DNA from: Alkalispirochaeta sp.
GTDB taxonomy: Bacteria > Spirochaetota > Spirochaetia > DSM-27196 > Alkalispirochaetaceae
NCBI GenBank assembly: GCA_965242725.1
Contig: CBDESZ010000005.1
Coordinates: 32,001-96,000 of the forward strand
Direction: 5' to 3'
Length of the DNA: 64,000 nucleotides
Shown here: one piece after another, positions 1 to 24,162 of the stretch
How positions within the stretch are numbered: position 1 is the stretch's first letter
Layout: each line of letters begins with the position of its first letter
Notes under the pieces: generated by a model
Seen by the model: the letters and a program-made list of their open reading frames with translations, nothing else
Database searches by the model: none
Told to the model about the DNA's origin: nothing
Program-made: the position numbers and the translations under genes

Positions 1-303
1 GCCTTCTGGCGGGAGTCGATCGCCATCGACACCGACTTCGATCCAACGGCGGATCCCGTCCCCTATCCACGGGAGCCGATACCCACGATACCTGCCGACC
101 GGCGACGACACACCTTTGCGGAAGTGGAACAGCCGTGGTGTGAAGCGGTGGCACTGCGACAGGCAAAGCGGTGCCTCCGATGTGACTACGGTCGCCGTAC
201 CGAAGTGAAAGCCGAAGTGAAAGCCGAAGTGAAAACCCGCATGGGAAGAGACGAAAACGATCGGACCGAAATGCGTCGGAAAGAGGAGGAAGTCAATGCC
301 TGA
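1..303 (+). CDS. C-terminal fragment of a GltD-like/NuoF-fused flavo-Fe-S subunit of the hydrogenase operon (partial, begins before the window)
   Basis: Frame 1 is open from base 1 to TGA at 301-303: ...RRHTFAEVEQPWCEAVALRQAKRCLRCDYG...; this 'F.EVE...A.RCLRCD' tail is typical of GltD-like oxidoreductases. Overlaps the hydA start at 296. Confidence 0.7.
   Translation, partial: AFWRESIAIDTDFDPTADPVPYPREPIPTIPADRRRHTFAEVEQPWCEAVALRQAKRCLRCDYGRRTEVKAEVKAEVKTRMGRDENDRTEMRRKEEEVNA
200..234 (+). repeat. 12-bp tandem repeat (CCGAAGTGAAAG x~2.9) encoding EVKA-EVKA-EVKT
   Basis: Read directly: units at 200-211, 212-223 and 224-234. Confidence 0.9.
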
Positions 304-2107
304 GATATACATCAACGGGAAAGCGATGGTTGTCGCCGAAGGCTCAACGATCCTCACCGCCGCCATGGAAGGGGGCATACATATTCCATCCCTCTGCTAC
401 CTCCCGGGACACGAGGCGCTTGGCGCGTGCCGGGTATGCACCGTGGAGGTGGAGGGAGCGCGGAAACTTGTCGCGGCGTGTGCGACGCCGGTTCACGATG
501 GAATGCGCATACGTACAAACAGCCGTCGCGTTCGGGAAGCACGCAAGACGGTGGTGCAGCTCCTGCTGAGCGAACATGACGGCAATTGTACGCAATGCGA
601 TCGCGGCGAAGACTGTGAGCTCAAGGAACTGGCGTACCTCACGGGGGTGCGGGAGGTGCTGTACCACGGCGAAAAGCCGCCGGCCCATCCCGATTGGACC
701 ACACCCGCCCTCTCCCGGGACCCGACCAAATGTATAAAATGCCGACGCTGCGTCACCATGTGTAATGAGGTGCAGCACGTGGGCGCGCTCTTTCCCCAGT
801 TCCGGGGATACGCAACGCAGATCGCGCCGGCCTTCGCCCAGGATCTTGCGACGGTCGCCTGCGTCCAGTGCGGTCAGTGTGCCGCCGTATGTCCCACCAG
901 CGCCATTACGGAAGTACACCACACCGACGCGGTTCTTCGCGCCCTTGAAGACCCGGAACGGACGGTCGTCGTCCAGACCGCCCCGGCGATTCGCGCCGCC
1001 CTGGGTGAGGAGTTCGGCTGTCCTCCGGGAACGCTTGTGACCGGGCAAATGGTCACCGCTCTGAGAGAGCTTGGATTCGATTACGTATTCGATACAAATT
1101 TCACCGCGGATCTCACCATTCTGGAAGAGGGAAGTGAGCTGCTGACGCGGCTGAAACGCACCCTTGTGGACGGCGAGGCGGATCTGCTGCCCCAGTTTAC
1201 GAGCTGTTCTCCCGGCTGGATCAAGTTTGCGGAACACTTCTACCCGGAAATTCTTGAAAAAATATCCACATGCAAATCACCGCAGCAGATGTTCGGTGCC
1301 CTGGCAAAGACGTACCTGGCGGAACAACTGGGAGTTCCGGCGCGGAACATCACCGTCGTTTCGGTGATGCCCTGCACGGCCAAGAAGTTTGAGGCACAGC
1401 GCCCGGAAATGGCGCATCAGGGTATTTCCGATGTGGACTACGTCCTCACCACCCGGGAACTTGCACATCTCATCAAGGGCAACGGTATTGACCTCATGGG
1501 ACTCGCCGACGGAACGATGGATGCACCCCTGGGGCTCTCCTCCGGTGCGGCCGACATATTTGCCAATACCGGCGGCGTCATGGAAGCGGCGCTCCGCACG
1601 GTGCACGAGCTCGTTACGGGAAGGCCTCTGCCGGGCGAGAATATGCACGTACGGGAAATTGCCGGTCTCGAGGGCGTCAAGGAAGCGTCGGTGAGAATCA
1701 GCGACGCCGTGGAGGAGTGGTCGTTTCTGGAGGGGGTGGACGTCAGGGTTGCCGTCGCCCACGGTCTGGGAAACGCGGCAAAACTGCTGGATCGCATGAA
1801 GGGTGAAGGAGCGACAAAGGGACCGCAGTACCACTTTGTGGAGGTCATGACGTGTCCCGGCGGATGCATCGGCGGCGGCGGCCAACCGCGGTTTACCGAC
1901 GATTCCGTCCGGAAGGCGCGTATCGCGGCGATCTACCGCGAAGATGAAGGAAAGGAGATCCGCGCGTCTCACCTGAATCCCGCGGTCATGGAGCTCTATG
2001 AAAAGTACCTCGGGACTCCTCTGGGCGAGCGGTCGCATCACCTTCTGCATACCGCCTATACCGCCCGGCCGATGCCGGAAGGAGCGTCGTTACAGCTCCT
2101 CTCCTAG
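296..2107 (+). CDS. hydA: [FeFe]-hydrogenase catalytic subunit, group A (HydA/HndD-like)
   Basis: H-cluster motifs TSCSPGW, MPCTAKKFE and EVMTCPGGCIGGGGQP; N-terminal [2Fe-2S] Cys set, His-ligated HxxxCxxCxxxxxC cluster and two CxxCxxCxxxC [4Fe-4S] motifs. Confidence 0.96.
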   Translation: MPEIYINGKAMVVAEGSTILTAAMEGGIHIPSLCYLPGHEALGACRVCTVEVEGARKLVAACATPVHDGMRIRTNSRRVREARKTVVQLLLSEHDGNCTQCDRGEDCELKELAYLTGVREVLYHGEKPPAHPDWTTPALSRDPTKCIKCRRCVTMCNEVQHVGALFPQFRGYATQIAPAFAQDLATVACVQCGQCAAVCPTSAITEVHHTDAVLRALEDPERTVVVQTAPAIRAALGEEFGCPPGTLVTGQMVTALRELGFDYVFDTNFTADLTILEEGSELLTRLKRTLVDGEADLLPQFTSCSPGWIKFAEHFYPEILEKISTCKSPQQMFGALAKTYLAEQLGVPARNITVVSVMPCTAKKFEAQRPEMAHQGISDVDYVLTTRELAHLIKGNGIDLMGLADGTMDAPLGLSSGAADIFANTGGVMEAALRTVHELVTGRPLPGENMHVREIAGLEGVKEASVRISDAVEEWSFLEGVDVRVAVAHGLGNAAKLLDRMKGEGATKGPQYHFVEVMTCPGGCIGGGGQPRFTDDSVRKARIAAIYREDEGKEIRASHLNPAVMELYEKYLGTPLGERSHHLLHTAYTARPMPEGASLQLLS

Positions 2108-11590: not shown

Positions 11591-12484
11591 TCAGAGGTAT
11601 CCGTTCTCGGTAAGCCATTCCCTGGCGATGTCGGCCGGCTCAACGCCGTCGTCATAGAGCACATTCAGTGCACTCATCGTCTCGGTGTCTATCGCTCCGC
11701 CGAGAGAGTTCAGCGTTTCAATGACTTCGGAGTAGTTCTCTATGACCTCGTCGGCGATCACGTATGCTCCGTTGTAGGCGGGGAAGAACTCCTTGTCGTC
11801 GGGGAGCATCACCAGGTTGAGACGGGCGATGCGGCTGTCCGTGGAGTACGCCGCAGCCACGTCGACTTCACCGGCGTCAATGGCGCGATAGATGAGGCCG
11901 TACTGCATGGGCAGGACGTCGTCAAACTCGATTCCGTAGTGCTCACTCCAGCCGGGATAGGCGTCGGGACGGATGTCGAAGTTGTCGTCCCCAGCGAGGA
12001 CCCACTCCTCGGCGAGACCTGCAAGATCGCTCGCCTTTTCGAGGCCGTACTCCTCTGCCGTCTCCTCCCGGACCACCATGATGTAGGTGTTGTTGAATCC
12101 GAGCGGTTCCGACCAGGTGTATCCGAAGTTCTCTTCAAATCCGTCCTTGACGTAATTCCACGTCTCTTCAGCCGTCAGCTGTTCCCCTTCGTAGCGCAGA
12201 ACACCGGTGAGCTGCGTGCCCGTCCACGTCGGATAGACATCGATTTCATCACCCTCCATTGCCTGATGGAGGACGGAGGAACCGGTGAAACTCGTGTTGA
12301 TCGTCGCGGAATAGGGCGTCTTCTCCTCGATAAGAATCTGTGCCATATGACCGAGAATGACCATCTCGTTGACATCCTGGGCGGCCACACGGATCGTCGG
12401 GGCTTCACCCTCGGCGCTTCCACTGCCAAAAACCATTCCGCCGGCAATTGCCGCCATCAAGAAAACCAGAAAAATTCGTCGCAT
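11591..12484 (-). CDS. Betaine/choline-type (OpuCC/OsmX-family) ABC substrate-binding protein
   Basis: Signal peptide; GEIDVYPTWTGT, PLGFNNTY, AYSTDSRI and L.DDK.FFPAY motifs. Confidence 0.9.
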   Translation of the reverse strand: MRRIFLVFLMAAIAGGMVFGSGSAEGEAPTIRVAAQDVNEMVILGHMAQILIEEKTPYSATINTSFTGSSVLHQAMEGDEIDVYPTWTGTQLTGVLRYEGEQLTAEETWNYVKDGFEENFGYTWSEPLGFNNTYIMVVREETAEEYGLEKASDLAGLAEEWVLAGDDNFDIRPDAYPGWSEHYGIEFDDVLPMQYGLIYRAIDAGEVDVAAAYSTDSRIARLNLVMLPDDKEFFPAYNGAYVIADEVIENYSEVIETLNSLGGAIDTETMSALNVLYDDGVEPADIAREWLTENGYL

Positions 12485-12522
12485 GTGTTTCTCCTTTCGC
12501 GTCAAATTTTGAAACTTCAATA

Positions 12523-13221
12523 TTAATCGTGAGCCGGTATTCCCAGCTTCGCTTCCTTTTTAATGATCCGCCGGGCGCGCCGGTCGGGGCTTACGTAGGT
12601 CTGAAACCACCGCAGACCGTAATCGGCTATGAGGGCCAGCACCGTCGCCGGCAGCGCTCCCGCGAGGATGACCTCGTTTCTGATCGCCGAGAGGCCCGAG
12701 AAGATGAGTCTTCCCAGCCCGCCGCCGCCTATCGCCGCCGCGAGGGCGGCGGTTCCGATGATCCACACCGATGCAACGCGAATACCCGAAATGATCACCG
12801 GCATTGCCAGGGGTATCTGTACCCGCGTCATGATCTGCAGCTCCGTCATGCCCATTCCGCGGGCGGCGTTGGTGAGCTGGACGGGCACGTTCTTTATACC
12901 CGTATAGGTGTTCTGCAGCACCGGCAGCATGGCGTAGAGAAAGAGCGCCGCAATGGCGTTGTCATTGCCGATGCCGAAGACGAAGATGAGAAAGCCGAGC
13001 AGCGCGAGGCTTGGCACGGTCTGAAAAACGTTTGCCACGGCGATGACATAGGGAGCGATTTTTTCGTTTCTCGTTAGATATATGCCCAGGGGTACGCACA
13101 CGACGACGGTGAGGGCGAGGGCGATGCCGGAAATTGCCACGTGTTCCCAGGCGAGGCCGAGCACGCGGTCCCAGTTTCGGCTGAGATATGTCGTCAGGAG
13201 CTGGAAAAAGTTCTGGTTCAC
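12523..13221 (-). CDS. Betaine-type ABC transporter permease (OpuCB/OsmW-like)
   Basis: QTVPSLALLG, EAA-like AARGMGM and IGGGGLG motifs. Confidence 0.92.
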   Translation of the reverse strand: MNQNFFQLLTTYLSRNWDRVLGLAWEHVAISGIALALTVVVCVPLGIYLTRNEKIAPYVIAVANVFQTVPSLALLGFLIFVFGIGNDNAIAALFLYAMLPVLQNTYTGIKNVPVQLTNAARGMGMTELQIMTRVQIPLAMPVIISGIRVASVWIIGTAALAAAIGGGGLGRLIFSGLSAIRNEVILAGALPATVLALIADYGLRWFQTYVSPDRRARRIIKKEAKLGIPAHD

Positions 13222-14348
13222 GAGTGTCCTCCTCCCCGGGTGAGGCGGGTAATGGTGAGTCTGGCGATCCCGCCGTTGGTGATGACCCCGGCGAGCCCTC
13301 CCTGGGGGGTGAGTACCGGAACCGGCGCGTCCAGATCGACGAGGAGTTCCGCCGCGTCCCGGACGGTTGCCTCGGGGAGCGTCAGCTTGCGGTCTTTGCG
13401 TCCAAGGGGCCCCACGGTGGAGTCACCCCGGCGCTCCGCCTCCAGCAGATCCGAGAGGTATACCATGCCCTTCCAGACTCCCTTCGCGTCGACGATCTGT
13501 GCCGTTTCCCGGCTCAGTTCTTCAAGCCCTTCAAGGACGACCGTCGGATCGGTGGCGGGACGAATGGTAAGGGGTGCCTTCTCGATCAGGGTGTCTACGG
13601 GGCTTTCAGGGGATATCTGGGAGAGCCGGTCTTCTCCGATGAAGCTCCGGACAAAATCACTCACCGGTTGATTCTGGAGGTCCTCCGCCGTACCGAGTTG
13701 TTCGATCTTTCCCCGGCGCATGAGGACGATGCGATCGCCCAGCTTCAGCGCTTCGTCGATGTCGTGGGTCACAAAGATGATCGTCTTCTGCACCCGCTTC
13801 TGCAGTTCCAGCAGTTCCTGCTGCAGTTTTCCCTTGGTGATCGGATCGAGCGCACCAAAGGGTTCATCCATGAGGATTACATCGGGATCCGCCGCAAGGG
13901 CGCGGAGGACGCCGATGCGTTGCTGCTGTCCTCCGGATAACTGGGCGGGCAGGCGGTTGCGGTACACCTTGGGGTCCAGTCCGGACATCTCCAATAGCTC
14001 GTCGATCCGCTTTCGCGTCCTTTTCCCTTTCCATCCAAGGAGGTTGGGAACGGTACCGATGTTTTCCCCTACCGTCAGGTGGGGCATGAGGCCGATTTCC
14101 TGAATGACGTAGCCGATGTTCCGACGCAATTCCACGGGGTTTGTGGTTGCGACATCCCTTCCGTCCACGAGCGTCGTGCCGTCGGTCGGCATTTCCAGGC
14201 GGTTGACCATTTTCAGGCTCGTCGTCTTGCCGCAGCCTGAAGGACCGATGAAAACGACAAACTCTCCTTTGGCAATGGACAGGCTGAGATTGTCCAGAGC
14301 GGTCGTGCCGTCGTCATAGACTTTCGTCACATTTCTGAATTCAACCAC
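13218..14348 (-). CDS. Betaine-type ABC transporter ATPase with C-terminal CBS-like region (OpuCA/OsmV-like)
   Basis: GPSGCGKT, LSGGQQQR and MDEPFGALD motifs; start GTG 14348 behind an AGGAGG SD. The longer 14726 start overlaps the hisC-like gene. Confidence 0.92.
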   Translation of the reverse strand: MVEFRNVTKVYDDGTTALDNLSLSIAKGEFVVFIGPSGCGKTTSLKMVNRLEMPTDGTTLVDGRDVATTNPVELRRNIGYVIQEIGLMPHLTVGENIGTVPNLLGWKGKRTRKRIDELLEMSGLDPKVYRNRLPAQLSGGQQQRIGVLRALAADPDVILMDEPFGALDPITKGKLQQELLELQKRVQKTIIFVTHDIDEALKLGDRIVLMRRGKIEQLGTAEDLQNQPVSDFVRSFIGEDRLSQISPESPVDTLIEKAPLTIRPATDPTVVLEGLEELSRETAQIVDAKGVWKGMVYLSDLLEAERRGDSTVGPLGRKDRKLTLPEATVRDAAELLVDLDAPVPVLTPQGGLAGVITNGGIARLTITRLTRGGGHS

Positions 14349-15480
14349 CCAATACCTCCTCAAGTCGGGAAAGAAAGATCGAATTGTCGCCGGTGGTGCC
14401 GACGGAAACGCGGAGATGGCGGTGAAATCCCCACCCGGAGCAGCTGCGCACGATAACGCCCTTTTGCAGCAGCTCCTCGGTGACACGGTCGGCGGCGTGC
14501 GTTCCTTCATCGCATTGATACGATTCAGGGAGTTCAAAAAAGACGAAGTTGGCCTGGGACGGGACGACAGCTGCTCCCAGATCCGCCAGTTCCCGTTCAA
14601 GGCGGCGTCGCTCCGAAATGATCGCCGCCACGGCCATCGATACGGAATCCATCCCGTCGGTGATCGTCGCCAGGGCTCCGGCGATGCCGATTCGGTTGGC
14701 ATTAAAGGGTTCCGCCACTGTGTCAATGGCGTGAATCGTTTCCGGCGCGGCCACGGCGTAGCCCATTCGGGCGCCCGCCAGGCCGTACGCCTTGGAAAAG
14801 GTCCGAACGACGATTACGTGTCGACCCTCGCCGATGAGGGTTTTCCAGTCCGGCAGGAGCTCGGGCGCCGCAAACTCCGCGTACGCCTCGTCGAGTATGA
14901 GCCACCCGTCCGAGGGCAGGGCGTCAAGCAGGCGGTGCAGATCGGTGTGGGCCGTCACCGTTCCCGTCGGATTGTTTGGATTACAGAGCCAGACGAGCTT
15001 TGTCCGGTCGGTGACCTTTTCCGTGAGAGCGTCCAGGTCGACACGGAAATGGCGGTCCAACGGGACGTTGTGTATCGTCCCGTCCATGAAACGGCTTATT
15101 TCCCGATACAGACCATAGGTCGCACCAGGTATGAGCACGTCGTCACCGGGTTGCACAAACATGCGTGCCAGCGTCTCAAGCATCCCCCCCGCACCGTGGG
15201 CCACGGCGATATGGTCTTCCGACAGTCCGTACAACGCACCGATGCGTCGCCGGAGTTCAATAAAGCTGTTTTCCGGATAGGTATGGATGAGCGGCAGTGC
15301 CTGCTGCATCGCATCAAGCGCCGCCGGGAAGGGGGCGTGAGGGTTTTCATTGGAGCCGAGTTTGACAACCTTGCTGAGCCCCAGCTCCCGGCGCACTTCC
15401 TCGGTTGTTTTGCCGGCGATATAGGGATGAACGTCTGAAATGGTTCTGCGTACGCCGGGCAATCTTTTTCTGTCTGTCAT
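14341..15480 (-). CDS. hisC: HisC-family PLP aminotransferase (histidinol-phosphate or aromatic/other amino acid)
   Basis: KLGSNENP, CNPNNPTG, DEAYAEF and RTFSKAYGLAGARMGY motifs. The context is catabolic, so a histidine-biosynthesis role is uncertain. Confidence 0.8.
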   Translation of the reverse strand: MTDRKRLPGVRRTISDVHPYIAGKTTEEVRRELGLSKVVKLGSNENPHAPFPAALDAMQQALPLIHTYPENSFIELRRRIGALYGLSEDHIAVAHGAGGMLETLARMFVQPGDDVLIPGATYGLYREISRFMDGTIHNVPLDRHFRVDLDALTEKVTDRTKLVWLCNPNNPTGTVTAHTDLHRLLDALPSDGWLILDEAYAEFAAPELLPDWKTLIGEGRHVIVVRTFSKAYGLAGARMGYAVAAPETIHAIDTVAEPFNANRIGIAGALATITDGMDSVSMAVAAIISERRRLERELADLGAAVVPSQANFVFFELPESYQCDEGTHAADRVTEELLQKGVIVRSCSGWGFHRHLRVSVGTTGDNSIFLSRLEEVLGG

Positions 15481-20444: not shown

Positions 20445-20774
20445 CTACTCCCGTTCAATCAGCAGTTTCGGGTACGGTTCTCCCTGGACGAGGTGGAGCC
20501 GGACGTGCTTGGGATTACCCATCCGTTCCAGCGCCTTGAGACTGAGTTCAACCGAGCCGACCTTGCATTCGTTTTTTTGATAGATATTGCCGTAGATCGG
20601 TTTCGCGTCACCCTGTTCTACCGTAGCGGGGCTGTGGTCGTAATAAAACTGCACCGTCGCATCGCTCATCATCAGGCCGAGATCAAATCCGTCGTTCGGA
20701 TTGATGACGATCTTCTTTTCCGGAAACGAAATGTCGGCAAGGACCTTCAGAAATGCGGTCTCTTTCACGTCCAT
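20445..20774 (-). CDS. Hypothetical protein, probable double-psi beta-barrel fold
   Basis: AGGAG SD; two pseudo-repeats, KIVINPND..DLGL..D.TV and GSVELS...LERMG.P..VRL. Confidence 0.7.
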   Translation of the reverse strand: MDVKETAFLKVLADISFPEKKIVINPNDGFDLGLMMSDATVQFYYDHSPATVEQGDAKPIYGNIYQKNECKVGSVELSLKALERMGNPKHVRLHLVQGEPYPKLLIERE

Positions 20775-20796: not shown

Positions 20797-21621
20797 TCAC
20801 AGCATATTCATACTGCCCCGATACGAGGCGATGTCCAAAACCATCACCATTGCGCCCTCGGTCTTGTCCAGGTCGCCGGTGATATCTTCTATTCCGTTGA
20901 TCATGTCGTCGATATGTTCTTCAGGAACCATCGCGAGAATGGTCTTGCTGTGATGTTTGCTTTCGTTGAGAAACCCGATGAAATCCGCGAAGAGGGGCAC
21001 ATTGGAAATATACTGTCCCATCCCTGCCGACTCGATAATCGTTGCCCCTTCGATTCCCTCTTCGATGAAGAGCTCAAGAACACGGTACAGAAACTCCTCT
21101 ACATACAAATTGACGATCATGAGTTTCATGACCCGCTTCTGTCCGTTTTCCGGACGTTCCATGCGGGTATTTCTGAGAAAGGTCTCATAGAGCGCCGTCT
21201 CGGAACGGGCCGCGAGGAGCTCCTGTTTGAGGTTGGTGTGGCTCAGCGCGCGTGAAACGGCGGCGAGTATTTTCAGGTGGTCCGTCACCGCATCGGGAGG
21301 GCTGAGTATGACAAAAAAGAGTTTTACCTTCTTTTTGTCCAGCCCATCGAAATCGACTCCCCTTGGGCTGGAAACGATAAAGAGGAGAAAATCCTTCAGG
21401 CCGGCGATGCGGGCGTGGGGAATGGCCAGTTCGTTTCCAAAAGCGGTGGAGCCCTGTGCTTCCCGTTCCTGTATCGCCGTTCTGACCGATTCCGCGGAAA
21501 TACCCCGGGCGACGTCGGACGCGACGGCGAGCTCGGATATCCGGGCGATCATGTCGTCTTTGTTCTTTGCGGAAACGTTGACGCGACAACTCTGCTTGTC
21601 GAGGATTTCGTACAGTTCCAT
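20797..21621 (-). CDS. PTS EIIA (type-2/Ntr-like) domain fused to a C-terminal PII-like domain
   Basis: ERE...STAFGNELAIPHAR (phospho-His) and HLKILA motifs; C-terminal ~105 aa with GATIIES.GMG and a PII-like pattern. Confidence 0.85.
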   Translation of the reverse strand: MELYEILDKQSCRVNVSAKNKDDMIARISELAVASDVARGISAESVRTAIQEREAQGSTAFGNELAIPHARIAGLKDFLLFIVSSPRGVDFDGLDKKKVKLFFVILSPPDAVTDHLKILAAVSRALSHTNLKQELLAARSETALYETFLRNTRMERPENGQKRVMKLMIVNLYVEEFLYRVLELFIEEGIEGATIIESAGMGQYISNVPLFADFIGFLNESKHHSKTILAMVPEEHIDDMINGIEDITGDLDKTEGAMVMVLDIASYRGSMNML

Positions 21622-21623
21622 CG

Positions 21624-22907
21624 TTACGCCTCCCTCATGTCGTTTCCCTTGATGATGGCGTATCGGGACAGCGGTGGTCCGATCAGTTCATTCACAAAGA
21701 CGGACAGGAGAATGATATTTACCATCGTTCCGATTATCGGCTGATATCTCATGGGAAGCATCGCCATGGCGGGGGACGCTTCAATAAGGAGGACCAGACC
21801 TATTGCGACACCCGCCTGGGGTAACATGCAAATACCGAGATAGTCCCGGATCTCCCGTCTTGCGCCGGCCATCTTGCTGCCGGCCCACACCCCGCCGTAC
21901 TTGCCCGCCGCCCGGGCGAGGATATATACACCGCCGAGGAGGAGGATCTGGGGGTCCGTAAAGACTTCAGGTCTGAGCTCGGTACCGGCAATGACAAAAA
22001 AGAGCGCATATATCGGAGGGGAGAGGGGGCGAAGAATTCGGAATATCCTGTGATTGTCAGGTGAAAGATTGATGATGAACGCCCCCGCCGTCATGTTGGT
22101 GAGCAGCGGAGAAAGCTTGAAGACGATAGCCGTGGCGGTTGAAAGAAAGAGGATCCCCAGGGTGGTGATCAATATCTCATTCTGGTTTGGGCGTCGCCGC
22201 GCAATGAGGTGTATGGCAAATCCCACGATCGCGCCGAGGAGGAGGGAGAATCCCACTTCCGAAAAGGCGTGGAGGACGATGGACAGGGTGCCGTGGGAAG
22301 CCGTTGCCGCAGCACCCGCCGCCGCGGATGCCTCGGCGCCGAGAATACTCCCTGCAACGGCAAAAACGACACCAAAAAGGATCACCGCACCTGCATCGTC
22401 AAGCGCCACCACACCATAGAGATAGTCGATGAAGGTACCTTTTGCGCGGAGACTCTGGACGATCGCCACGGTGGCCGCCGGCGCGGTTGCGGAGGATATC
22501 GCCCCAAGGAGAAGGGCAAAGGGTGGAGGCATACGCAACAGTATAAGGGCGACGGAGACCACCCCGAAAGCGGCAAGAAGCTGAACGACGGTTATGATGA
22601 CTACCGCCTTCCCCATGCGTTTGAGCTTGACCCAGTAGAACTCACCGCCGATGGTGATGGCGATCAGGCCGAGGGCGACCTCGGTGACAAGGCTGAGTCC
22701 CTGATCCATGTGGTGAGGGATGAAACCGAGAAATGAATCTCCGACGAGCAGACCCGCTACGATATACCCCGTTATTTCCGGAAGTCGAATGACATTGGCA
22801 ATCTTTCCGATGAAGTATCCAAGCAGGAGAAGGATGCCGAGAGAGAAGAGCGCGTGCTGCCCGAGTATTTCCCGTAGTGCGTCCACGACGAGACCACTAT
22901 AATACAA
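21624..22907 (-). CDS. Cation:proton antiporter (CPA2/Kef-like; start TTG 22907 or GTG 22886)
   Basis: LPEITGYIVAG, ATAPAAT, ALDD, FFVIAG and PQAGVAIGL motifs; about 12 TM helices. Confidence 0.92.
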   Translation of the reverse strand: MYYSGLVVDALREILGQHALFSLGILLLLGYFIGKIANVIRLPEITGYIVAGLLVGDSFLGFIPHHMDQGLSLVTEVALGLIAITIGGEFYWVKLKRMGKAVVIITVVQLLAAFGVVSVALILLRMPPPFALLLGAISSATAPAATVAIVQSLRAKGTFIDYLYGVVALDDAGAVILFGVVFAVAGSILGAEASAAAGAAATASHGTLSIVLHAFSEVGFSLLLGAIVGFAIHLIARRRPNQNEILITTLGILFLSTATAIVFKLSPLLTNMTAGAFIINLSPDNHRIFRILRPLSPPIYALFFVIAGTELRPEVFTDPQILLLGGVYILARAAGKYGGVWAGSKMAGARREIRDYLGICMLPQAGVAIGLVLLIEASPAMAMLPMRYQPIIGTMVNIILLSVFVNELIGPPLSRYAIIKGNDMREA

Positions 22908-22909
22908 AG

Positions 22910-22935
22910 CCGATATGGTGTCTCCACCATATCGG
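22910..22935 (-). terminator. Hairpin terminator after the aminotransferase
   Basis: 11-bp perfect stem CCGATATGGTG/CACCATATCGG, followed on the minus strand by CTTTGT. Confidence 0.65.
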
Positions 22936-22962
22936 CCTGAAGTGTCACGGCGGATCGCGGCG

Positions 22963-24162
22963 CTAACGCAACGCGTCCAGGGCGTCTTTCAGGCGCGTAA
23001 TTCCGCGTTCACACTCCTCGGTGGAACAGGAGTAGGCGATGCGGACGTGTCCTTCCCCGGCACTTCCGAAGACGCTACCGGCAACGGTGGCGATGCCGTG
23101 GTCAAAGAGCAGATAGTCGGCGATCTCCTTGGAACTCTTTCCGAACGAAGAAAGGTTGGGAAATGCGTAGAATGCGCCGTCCGGTACCGCCAGGGTAACG
23201 CCGGGTATCGAATTCAGTCCGTTGACGATGATTTCACGTCGTTTGCCGAACTCGGCGATGCGCTCGCTGATGAGAGACTGGTCCCCCGACAGTCCCGCCG
23301 CCGCGCCGTGCTGAATGAAGGTGTTGACGCAGACGGTGGTGTACTGGCGGATCTTGAGAATGTGCATCGTCAATTCCGGACTCGCAACGGTCCAGCCCAA
23401 TCGCCAGCCGTCCATGCTGTAGGTCTTGGAGAATCCGTTAATGACGACCGTTCGTTCCGCCATTCCTGGAACCGAATAAATGGACGGTGAAGTTTCACCC
23501 TGATCGCCAAAATAGATTCGATTGTAGATCTCGTCACTGATGACGATAAGGTTGTGCTTGATTGCGAGGTCGGCGATCGCCTTGAGGTTCTCCATCGACT
23601 CGGTGCACCCCGTGGGGTTTCCCGGTGAGGTCACACAGATCATCTTGGTTTTCGGCGTGATCTTCTTCGCGACGAGATCCGCTCTGAGGGAGAAATTGTC
23701 GGCTTCGCTGGTTTCCACCTCTACCGGCACGCCTCCTGCGAGGGAGACTGTGGATTTATAGTGGTGCCAGTTGGGGTTGGGAATGATGACCTCGTCACCG
23801 GGATTGATGAAGGCCATCATGGTAACCATGATTCCTTCATTGGCGCCGGCCATGACGATGACCTGTGATTCCGGATCAACATCCAGGCCGCTGTCCAGTT
23901 TTGCCCGCGCGGCGATGGCGTTGCGCAACGCCGGAACTCCCCGGTTGGGTGAGTAGTGCACGTCTCCCCGCTGCATCGATGCGGCGGCCGCATCCTTTAC
24001 GTGCTGGGGTGTGTCAAAATCGGTACGGCCGATTTGCCAGTGAATGACGTCCCGTCCTTCATCTTCAAGCTTTTTGACCGCATCAAAGACGCGGCGAATA
24101 CCTGAAAAAGGTACCTTGTCCAGGCGATCGGCGCCGCGATCGGCGGGTGTTTGGGTGCTCAT
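22963..24162 (-). CDS. Class I/II PLP-dependent aminotransferase (aspartate aminotransferase-like)
   Basis: SPGNPTG, SDEIY, NGFSKTYSMDGWRLG and GAFY motifs. Confidence 0.93.
   Translation of the reverse strand: MSTQTPADRGADRLDKVPFSGIRRVFDAVKKLEDEGRDVIHWQIGRTDFDTPQHVKDAAAASMQRGDVHYSPNRGVPALRNAIAARAKLDSGLDVDPESQVIVMAGANEGIMVTMMAFINPGDEVIIPNPNWHHYKSTVSLAGGVPVEVETSEADNFSLRADLVAKKITPKTKMICVTSPGNPTGCTESMENLKAIADLAIKHNLIVISDEIYNRIYFGDQGETSPSIYSVPGMAERTVVINGFSKTYSMDGWRLGWTVASPELTMHILKIRQYTTVCVNTFIQHGAAAGLSGDQSLISERIAEFGKRREIIVNGLNSIPGVTLAVPDGAFYAFPNLSSFGKSSKEIADYLLFDHGIATVAGSVFGSAGEGHVRIAYSCSTEECERGITRLKDALDALR

Follow-up and report, generated by a model that had tools for sequence, protein, structure and literature searches.

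A PII-like domain fused to a PTS EIIA domain and linked to a tail-less CPA2-type antiporter in Alkalispirochaeta: a candidate regulatory subunit

Among the cation/proton antiporters (CPA), KhtTU and AmhMT are CPA2 systems made up of two parts, one of them a separate subunit in the cytosol. In E. coli, the K+/H+ antiporter YcgO (CvrA) is reported to be bound and inhibited by unphosphorylated PtsN, an EIIA protein of the phosphotransferase system (PTS) (PMC11808508; bioRxiv 10.64898/2026.08.14.744764). According to the preprint, PtsN contacts the cytosolic CorC domain of YcgO via H73 and locks the transport helices, and the H73E substitution abolishes binding. Here we analysed a stretch of 64,000 nucleotides from Alkalispirochaeta sp. 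(GCA_965242725.1, contig CBDESZ010000005.1, positions 32,001 to 96,000 of the forward strand; referred to as the window), in which a CPA2-type antiporter gene without a regulatory tail is followed by a gene encoding an EIIA domain fused to a PII-like domain. On comparative grounds we propose, giving it about an even chance, that the fusion protein would be a detachable regulatory subunit of the neighbouring antiporter, docking on it by way of the T-loop and switched by phosphorylation of its EIIA domain.

As in PtsN-YcgO, an EIIA of the same fold, with the same His/Arg site, is tied to a CPA, and control would depend on phosphorylation of the histidine. However, YcgO is described as a K+-specific CPA1 antiporter with its own RCK and CorC domains, on which PtsN acts in trans from another operon, whereas here the antiporter is a tail-less CPA2 and the EIIA is fused to a PII-like domain within the same operon. 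The first-pass annotation of the window had named the control of TrkA and KdpD by EIIA-Ntr as precedent; PtsN-YcgO is nearer than these two. Like SbtB-SbtA and GlnK-AmtB, as described in PMC10710835 and PMC8654305, the locus places a PII-fold gene beside a transporter gene, and the flexible T-loop is the likely point of contact. It differs from both in that the transporters concerned are CPA2 or Mrp, an EIIA is added, the canonical ligand residues are lost and the transporter is probably dimeric rather than trimeric. PstA/DarA shares the PII-like fold, and a cyclic di-AMP (c-di-AMP) context is plausible from the diadenylate cyclase genes of this genome, but the domain studied here falls outside PF06153, has a long hydrophobic T-loop and is linked to a transporter. 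A soluble partner that controls or supports a membrane-only antiporter has been described for KefF/KefG (PMC7349511), and regulation of a secondary transporter by PTS phosphorylation for LacS with its fused IIA (PMC10710835). The partners in KefF/KefG, KhtTU, AmhMT and LacS are of the RCK or flavodoxin type or IIA-Glc, whereas here a PII-like domain is joined to an EIIA of the Fru/Ntr type.

In the open full-text literature, a scope that leaves subscription reviews and bioRxiv supplements outside, we came across neither an EIIA-PII-like fusion nor a link between this PII-like family and antiporters. The term PII is absent from the accessible text of the YcgO preprint (bioRxiv 10.64898/2026.08.14.744764), a PTS-Ntr review (PMC13104625), a CPA review (PMC7349511) and the UmpAB paper (PMC5484666). 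Antiporters under EIIA control and transporters under PII control are both established; the fusion of the two domains and the involvement of this PII-like family are, provisionally, new. The system is real, conserved and uncharacterised. The coupling of Na+/H+ exchange to metabolic state has been detailed in few systems (PtsN-YcgO, Kef, RCK/CBS domains), and the locus offers a two-gene, directly testable case in which PTS and PII signalling families meet on one polypeptide. In addition, a role can be predicted from our survey for a large PII-like family that has yet to be characterised and that also occurs in gut and bioreactor bacteria; it comprises 919 representatives at 50% identity, the weakest of which may include other PII-type proteins.

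The antiporter and the EIIA-PII-like fusion

Both genes are minus-strand open reading frames (ORFs; Table 1), and the antiporter ends, as read in the first-pass annotation, 2 nt before the fusion: its TAA codon is followed by two nucleotides and the ATG of the fusion gene, with a Shine-Dalgarno-like purine run within the final antiporter codons. From this arrangement we infer that the two genes are translationally coupled. PF00999 matched residues 30-408 of the 427-residue longest frame of the antiporter (E 3.5e-28) and no other Pfam domain was found. After the last helix only about 15 residues follow, without RCK or CorC cytosolic domains, which bears out the absence of a cytoplasmic regulatory tail that had been read from the sequence at first pass. 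The YcgO/Kef-type self-regulated class, which carries fused RCK/CorC domains, was therefore rejected.

The register of the CPA motif was set by alignment to MjNhaP1 and by the family alignment. In numbering from the TTG codon, the motif reads A140-T-A-P143, V166, D170-D171 and R332/K336. By the rules given in Masrati et al. (PMC6181914), CPA2 members have no Glu at position 5, and Ser or Thr at position 4 marks K+-selective Kef-like CPA2 proteins. We assigned the antiporter to CPA2 on the basis of V166 at position 5 and the PF00999 match; its best NCBIfam match is TIGR00932 (CPA2), under the cut-off of that model. The K+-selective Kef-like class was rejected, as positions 1-4 are A-T-A-P without Ser/Thr at position 4. 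By the same rule the non-polar position 4 favours Na+, and the motif suggests that the protein is probably an Na+/H+ exchanger. Electrogenic CPA2 members of the NhaA/NapA type combine an Asp-Asp pair at positions 6 and 7 with Lys at position 8; the pair is present as D170-D171, and position 8 may be either R332, which does not vary in 131 rows, or K336. The Glu in transmembrane helix 3 of NHA2-like members is Gln in this antiporter and Glu in most of its relatives.

The EIIA domain of the fusion was judged intact at first pass, and this reading stood. PF00359 matched residues 5-149 with 93.9 bits against a cut-off of 27 (E 1.1e-26), the structurally nearest protein is EIIA-Ntr (VIA-align Z 23.1, root mean square deviation 1.6-1.7 over 148-150 residues), and in the alignment with E. 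coli EIIA-Ntr (1a6j) its R53, H69 and H115 are the counterparts of R57, H73 and H120. H69 and R53 are kept in all 79 EIIAs compared, 49 of 49 fused and 30 of 30 split. Membership of the PtsN/EIIA-Ntr equivalog TIGR01419 was rejected (80 versus 138.7 bits). We found 428 homologues of the fusion at E<=1e-3, with lengths of 259-276 aa among the 120 matches listed. A profile scan of the 59 window proteins (50 of them at E<=1e-10) detected no EIIB or EIIC family, in line with the first-pass statement that none is nearby, and the single EIIB of the genome found in a search with PF02302 only lies on another contig. With no linked EIIB/EIIC, we rejected a sugar-transporting PTS enzyme II.

In the AlphaFold2 model of the fusion (104 sequences, mean predicted local distance difference test (pLDDT) score 79.3, predicted template modelling score 0.61), residues 165-262 follow the order β-α-β-loop-β-α-β, and the loop, residues 202-222, has a pLDDT <50. 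Foldseek matched this half of the protein to PstA, GlnZ, GlnK and PotN with E-values of about 1e-4 to 4e-4, the PstA/DarA structure 4wk1 at 1.4e-4. VIA-align gave Z scores of 10.5 for DUF3240, 9.5 for SbtB and 9.4 for both CPII and PII; unrelated ferredoxin-like domains of the EF-G type reach 9.8, near the PII-type scores. When the family profile was compared with canonical PII by hhalign, the match was 96.6% (E 5e-10), versus only 35% for a narrow profile of the fusion clade. PF00543 (P-II) matched this protein below its cut-off (16.2 versus 25 bits) and matched 78 of 90 family members at E<=0.1, the best at 3.8e-9. A sequence search of the C-terminal domain alone against the PDB gave no match and a profile search only PII and PstA at E>=0.13; the ESM Atlas held no usable match for residues 160-274. 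The 13 weak matches of the family profile in genomes that we examined had the canonical GlnB/GlnK sequence pattern. Because of the model topology, the structural matches and the alignment of the family profile to canonical PII, we conclude that the C-terminal domain, called PII-like at first pass, is a PII homologue of a non-canonical kind.

Profile-profile alignment placed R38, Q39, K90, R101 and R103 of canonical PII at Q203, Y204, M258, G269 and M271, the stretch G87-D-G-K90 at E-G-A-M258, K58 at S225 (K226 is adjacent; register +/-1) and Y51 at G216. We take R38, Q39, K58, G87-D-G-K90, R101 and R103 to be the residues that bind ATP and 2-oxoglutarate and Tyr51 to be the T-loop modification site. 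The C-terminal RxR was found in none of 118 family members and GDGK in one. A canonical PII (GlnB/GlnK) was therefore rejected, as the ligand residues are lost, the Y51 site is G216 and PF00543 stays below its cut-off; the canonical PII of the genome is a separate gene on contig C24. PstA/DarA (PF06153) was rejected as well, with no match for this protein and a match to one of 90 family members (E 0.011).

The T-loop is the chief protein-interaction motif of PII proteins, as described in PMC8654305. Among 104 homologues, mean conservation was highest here (0.85 versus 0.73 in the PII core and 0.68 in EIIA), and P209 and F211 occur in 81% and 85%, respectively, of 118 diverse family members. 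This PxF motif persists in branches in which the glycine-rich GxGAT..GMG segment has decayed. The helical amphipathicity of the loop was modest (moment up to 0.41) and was not used as evidence.

Distribution of the PII-like family and its linkage to antiporters

In 24 of the 25 loci with a fusion the antiporter gene immediately precedes it, and the contig of the 25th begins inside the fusion gene; 54 further loci that matched the EIIA domain only were left out of the 25. Across the 24 homologous loci the gap between the two genes ranges from -10 to +1 nt. The labels of these loci include Spirochaetota, Desulfuromonadaceae, Fibrobacterota, Planctomycetaceae, Cloacimonadales, Kiritimatiellae and Polyangia. 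The two genes are thus co-conserved, a point on which the first-pass annotation had staked its proposal beforehand.

In 301 Spirochaetota genomes the PII-like profile matched 35 places in 26 genomes, or 33 after two fragments were dropped. An EIIA is fused or adjacent in all 33 loci, 22 of which have a CPA, four an Mrp operon and seven no nearby transporter. The company of EIIA and PII-like genes even without a transporter points to a direct link between the two proteins. Transporter-free pairs in four genomes (L136-L139; labels of this kind denote loci in our survey) lie upstream of the genes for ribosomal protein S6 and/or ssb. A metagenome scan with stand-alone PII-like members, the seed of which was labelled Candidatus Fimivivens, gave 80 loci, 33 of them distinct, with a CPA of the same subfamily adjacent in 31 of the 33 and an EIIA in none. 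These EIIA-free loci indicate that the PII-like domain is the constant partner, whose linkage to the transporter needs no EIIA. In the phylum of genome G301, eight of 14 strong matches lie with an EIIA in an operon that also holds a CPA pair. In the PII tree, at least two or three branches carry fusions and two carry Mrp links; in L064 separate EIIA and PII-like genes follow two CPA genes.

Several of these loci have further peculiarities. The operons of L064 and L185-L191 each contain two divergent CPA paralogues with EIIA and PII-like genes; these paralogues lack the usual Asp-Asp pair or have one Asp, and the pairing suggests a heterodimer. Stand-alone PII-like genes lie upstream of the ATP synthase a/c genes on the same strand in L182:4477-6406 and L184:4054-6333, with a CPA pair on the opposite strand. 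In a Bacillota metagenome-assembled genome (MAG), the same PII-like domain makes up residues 302-411 of a 422-aa fusion protein (P0247/P0285) that bears the name "peptide chain release factor N5-glutamine methyltransferase". The CPA genes of L203:5345-6541 and L322:3975-5632 are split into three ORFs, by frameshifts or assembly errors.

We also surveyed the antiporter subfamily reciprocally and found it at 91 places in 74 of the 301 Spirochaetota genomes. A long tail is present in 51, and among the 50 examined it consists of a CBS pair, a nucleotide-binding module, in 48 and of an EIIA in two; six CBS tails were confirmed by Pfam and the others through a profile built from those six. No PII-like gene was found within 1.5-2.5 kb of the 50 tailed antiporters, some of whose loci end at contig edges, and a separate EIIA gene lies near 11 of them. 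Of the 40 tail-less antiporters one is cut by a contig end, and 33 of the other 39 have PII-like and EIIA genes in the operon. An unrooted FastTree of 157 antiporters places the main CBS clade within a set of clades linked to PII. It is suggestive, not proven, that the CBS tail and the PII-like partner are mutually exclusive and interchangeable. A C-terminal EIIA fused directly to the CPA was seen in L020:6596-8854, L134:2781-4484, L298:988-2706 and L345:2097-3788.

The genome studied here has three PII-like copies. Beside the present fusion, a split pair of stand-alone PII-like and EIIA genes (L111:3860-8716; G000:C13) lies ahead of an Mrp/Mnh operon (E, F, G, MbhD-like, MbhE-like, B, C, D), and L112:5500-10274 (G000:C22) has an HTH_17-EIIA gene, a divergent EIIA-PII-like fusion and a CPA in an operon. 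Its transcription runs away from a channel gene of the CASTOR/POLLUX-like kind that encodes RCK-type domains. Split pairs linked to Mrp were found in four loci on two PII branches, namely L111, the similar L125 and L126, and L141, in which the pair lies inside the operon. The third CPA of the genome also follows an EIIA, so that all three CPA genes and the Mrp operon adjoin an EIIA. Genes for EI, three HPr proteins and HPrK are present, as are two diadenylate cyclase domains, one of them fused to EIIA (L117:5071-6372; G000:C18); this fusion possibly links PTS phosphorylation to c-di-AMP synthesis. Two of three weak matches of a sister clade adjoin DUF1538 genes, a family from which a two-component Na+(Li+,K+)/H+ antiporter has been characterised (PMC5484666). 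The PII-like family might serve monovalent-cation/H+ antiporters in general, across unrelated folds (CPA2, Mrp and, via the sister clade, DUF1538/UmpAB), as a plug-in gate that is interchangeable with a fused CBS pair and often switched by EIIA; it would then be a PII protein under the control of PTS histidine phosphorylation in place of ATP/2-oxoglutarate or uridylylation. This is a tentative idea that we consider doubtful. If the split pair acts on Mrp, it would name a direct protein regulator for a major antiporter class.

Regulatory readings of the fusion

A regulatory role on ion/H+ antiport, as suggested at first pass, remains the most likely function given the PII-type fold, the intact EIIA site and the linkage in 24 of 25 loci. 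Our proposal joins the observations on domains and fold, the conserved His/Arg, the linkage of the genes, the complementarity of tail and partner and the presence of EI and HPr into the following scheme. The PII-like domain, presumably a trimer, would dock on the antiporter via its hydrophobic T-loop and do the job that a fused CBS pair may do in sister antiporters and RCK/CorC in YcgO. H69 would be phosphorylated from phosphoenolpyruvate via enzyme I and HPr of the genome, and EIIA would act through the PII-like domain, so that transport would track the carbon and energy state. By analogy with PtsN-YcgO, the unphosphorylated form might hold the antiporter shut. A small-molecule ligand of the PII-like domain is possible and would not be required.

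Several points weigh against this proposal. Its support is wholly comparative. PII proteins are trimers, and AmtB-GlnK and SbtA-SbtB are matched trimers, unlike the CPA dimer; YcgO is reported to be a dimer (bioRxiv 10.64898/2026.08.14.744764). CPA, Mrp and DUF1538 have unrelated folds, and a shared docking surface is not self-evident. The antiporter alignment shows no clear PII-specific surface patch: the 13 positions that differ in PII-linked members do so mostly conservatively and track the single large CBS clade. The linkage also has its gaps, as the seven of 33 Spirochaetota loci with EIIA and PII-like genes but no antiporter, six of the 14 strong matches in the phylum of G301 without an antiporter in the operon, and six of the 39 tail-less antiporters without a PII-like neighbour illustrate. 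Furthermore, tail and partner each change only three times on the antiporter tree; with CPA-pair loci left out, there are three independent pairs, too few to reach significance, about two concordant and none opposite (sign test p 0.5).

The PII-like cleft might instead bind an adenine nucleotide or second messenger (AMP/ADP/ATP, cAMP or c-di-AMP) as an input parallel to EIIA phosphorylation, as first suggested. The replacement of the PII-like partner by a CBS pair, described as a nucleotide-binding module (PMC10710835), in 48 of 50 tailed relatives speaks for such a second input, as do the retention of G27, T29, E32, G35 and G37 of canonical PII and the frequent conservation of the R38 (54%) and G89 (83%) positions in non-fused members. 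SbtB and PstA/DarA, both among the structural matches, are reported to bind c-di-AMP (PMC8654305), and the genome has the two diadenylate cyclase domains. On the other hand, R38, Q39, G89, K90, R101 and R103 have become Q, Y, A, M, G and M, losses that argue against ATP/2-oxoglutarate binding. The near-absence of GDGK, RxR and PF06153 matches from the family and the decay of GxGAT..GMG in several branches in which the T-loop PxF stays count in the same direction, and we regard two independent inputs as rather unlikely. A serial order, from EIIA through the PII-like domain to the antiporter, appears simplest because the PII-like gene occurs with antiporters without EIIA, EIIA with the PII-like gene without a transporter and EIIA with CBS-tailed antiporters without PII, and because CBS and the PII-like domain exclude each other; it fits the comparative data at least as well as two inputs do.

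Signalling could also run outward, the module reading the ion or transport state and relaying it through EIIA phosphorylation to HTH-EIIA, EIIA-DAC (the diadenylate cyclase fusion) and other transporters, or the neighbour could be one of several targets. The seven transporter-free pairs, the HTH_17-EIIA genes that head many EIIA-PII-CPA operons, the EIIA-DAC fusion and the PII-like genes ahead of ATP synthase a/c in L182 and L184 would suit this explanation. We consider it improbable, as the 31 EIIA-free loci with a CPA have no PTS output and substitution by a fused CBS tail better fits an input to the transporter. The antiporter might simply need the PII-like protein for folding, stability or full activity, with little switching, as Kef needs KefF/KefG; ancillary subunits of CPA are known (PMC7349511), the coupled translation suggests a fixed stoichiometry, and the ligand residues have decayed while the hydrophobic contact motif is kept. 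However, the EIIA phospho-site is invariant, the fusion arose on more than one branch and some tail-less relatives have no partner, which makes this quite improbable. Mere co-regulation in a salt or pH stress operon of proteins that do not interact would explain why orphan loci show the linkage to be non-obligatory, yet it sits badly with stop/start overlaps across phyla, four gene orders and the fact that the PII-like neighbour is lost once an antiporter has gained a CBS tail, and is in our view highly improbable.

Gene boundaries and neighbouring genes

The order on the minus strand is aminotransferase (22963-24162), antiporter, fusion, ORF109, a TPR gene and rubredoxin. At first pass the antiporter had been extended to 22907; it probably starts at GTG 22886, since TTG 22907 overlaps a terminator-like hairpin and a TATAGT box, and since L001, a syntenic locus of an Alkalispirochaeta MAG with a 71% identical fusion, has a GTG in the corresponding place, preceded by the same box. 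Promoter and terminator consensus matches across the region are, in total counts, at shuffle level.

Table 1. Coordinates of the features described, in positions of the window.
Feature	Coordinates	Strand	Basis
CPA2-type antiporter gene, tail-less, ~420 aa (probable start)	21624..22886	-	PF00999; start from L001 comparison; longest ORF to TTG 22907 = 427 aa
EIIA-PII-like fusion gene, 274 aa	20797..21621	-	ORF list, Pfam, structure model
EIIA domain (Fru/Mtl/Ntr fold), residues 1-150	21172..21621	-	Pfam, structure comparison; H69 codon 21415-21417
PII-like domain, residues 164-274	20800..21132	-	Model, Foldseek, VIA-align, profile-profile alignment
T-loop, residues 200-224, P209-L-F211-A-x-F214 motif; candidate docking segment	20950..21024	-	Conservation, pLDDT
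Antiporter/fusion junction: Shine-Dalgarno-like run, stop codon, 2-nt gap	21622..21635	-	
14-bp terminator-like hairpin of the upstream aminotransferase gene	22907-22938	-	Consensus match only
TATAGT -10-like box	22896-22901	-	Consensus match only; also precedes the L001 antiporter

The first-pass annotation had suggested that the downstream genes may belong to the same unit. Of 26 distant loci, only one has the ORF109, TPR and rubredoxin genes after the pair, and outside the close kin of this genome these genes lie elsewhere. We rejected them as members, as ORF109 is common with or without the fusion and often on another contig: it occurs in 34 of 41 relatives, 13 of these without a fusion match at E<=1e-40, and in the family to which this genome belongs it is adjacent to the fusion in 11 genomes, about 4 kb apart in two and on a different contig in eight. 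Here, with a gap of 22 nt, the downstream genes may be co-transcribed with the pair. ORF109 (20445-20774, minus strand) is accompanied by rubredoxin in 12 of 12 loci and by TPR in 10 of 12. It has no Pfam match, its nearest ESM Atlas neighbours are unnamed Spirochaetota clusters, and its feature similarity to CDC48_N and molybdopterin-binding domains is below 0.9; a double-psi-barrel is a lead only.

Elsewhere in the window we found genes of an OpuA-type glycine betaine ABC transporter (11591-14726, minus strand) and an [FeFe] hydrogenase gene (296-2104, plus strand), which are consistent with an osmo-adapted anaerobe.

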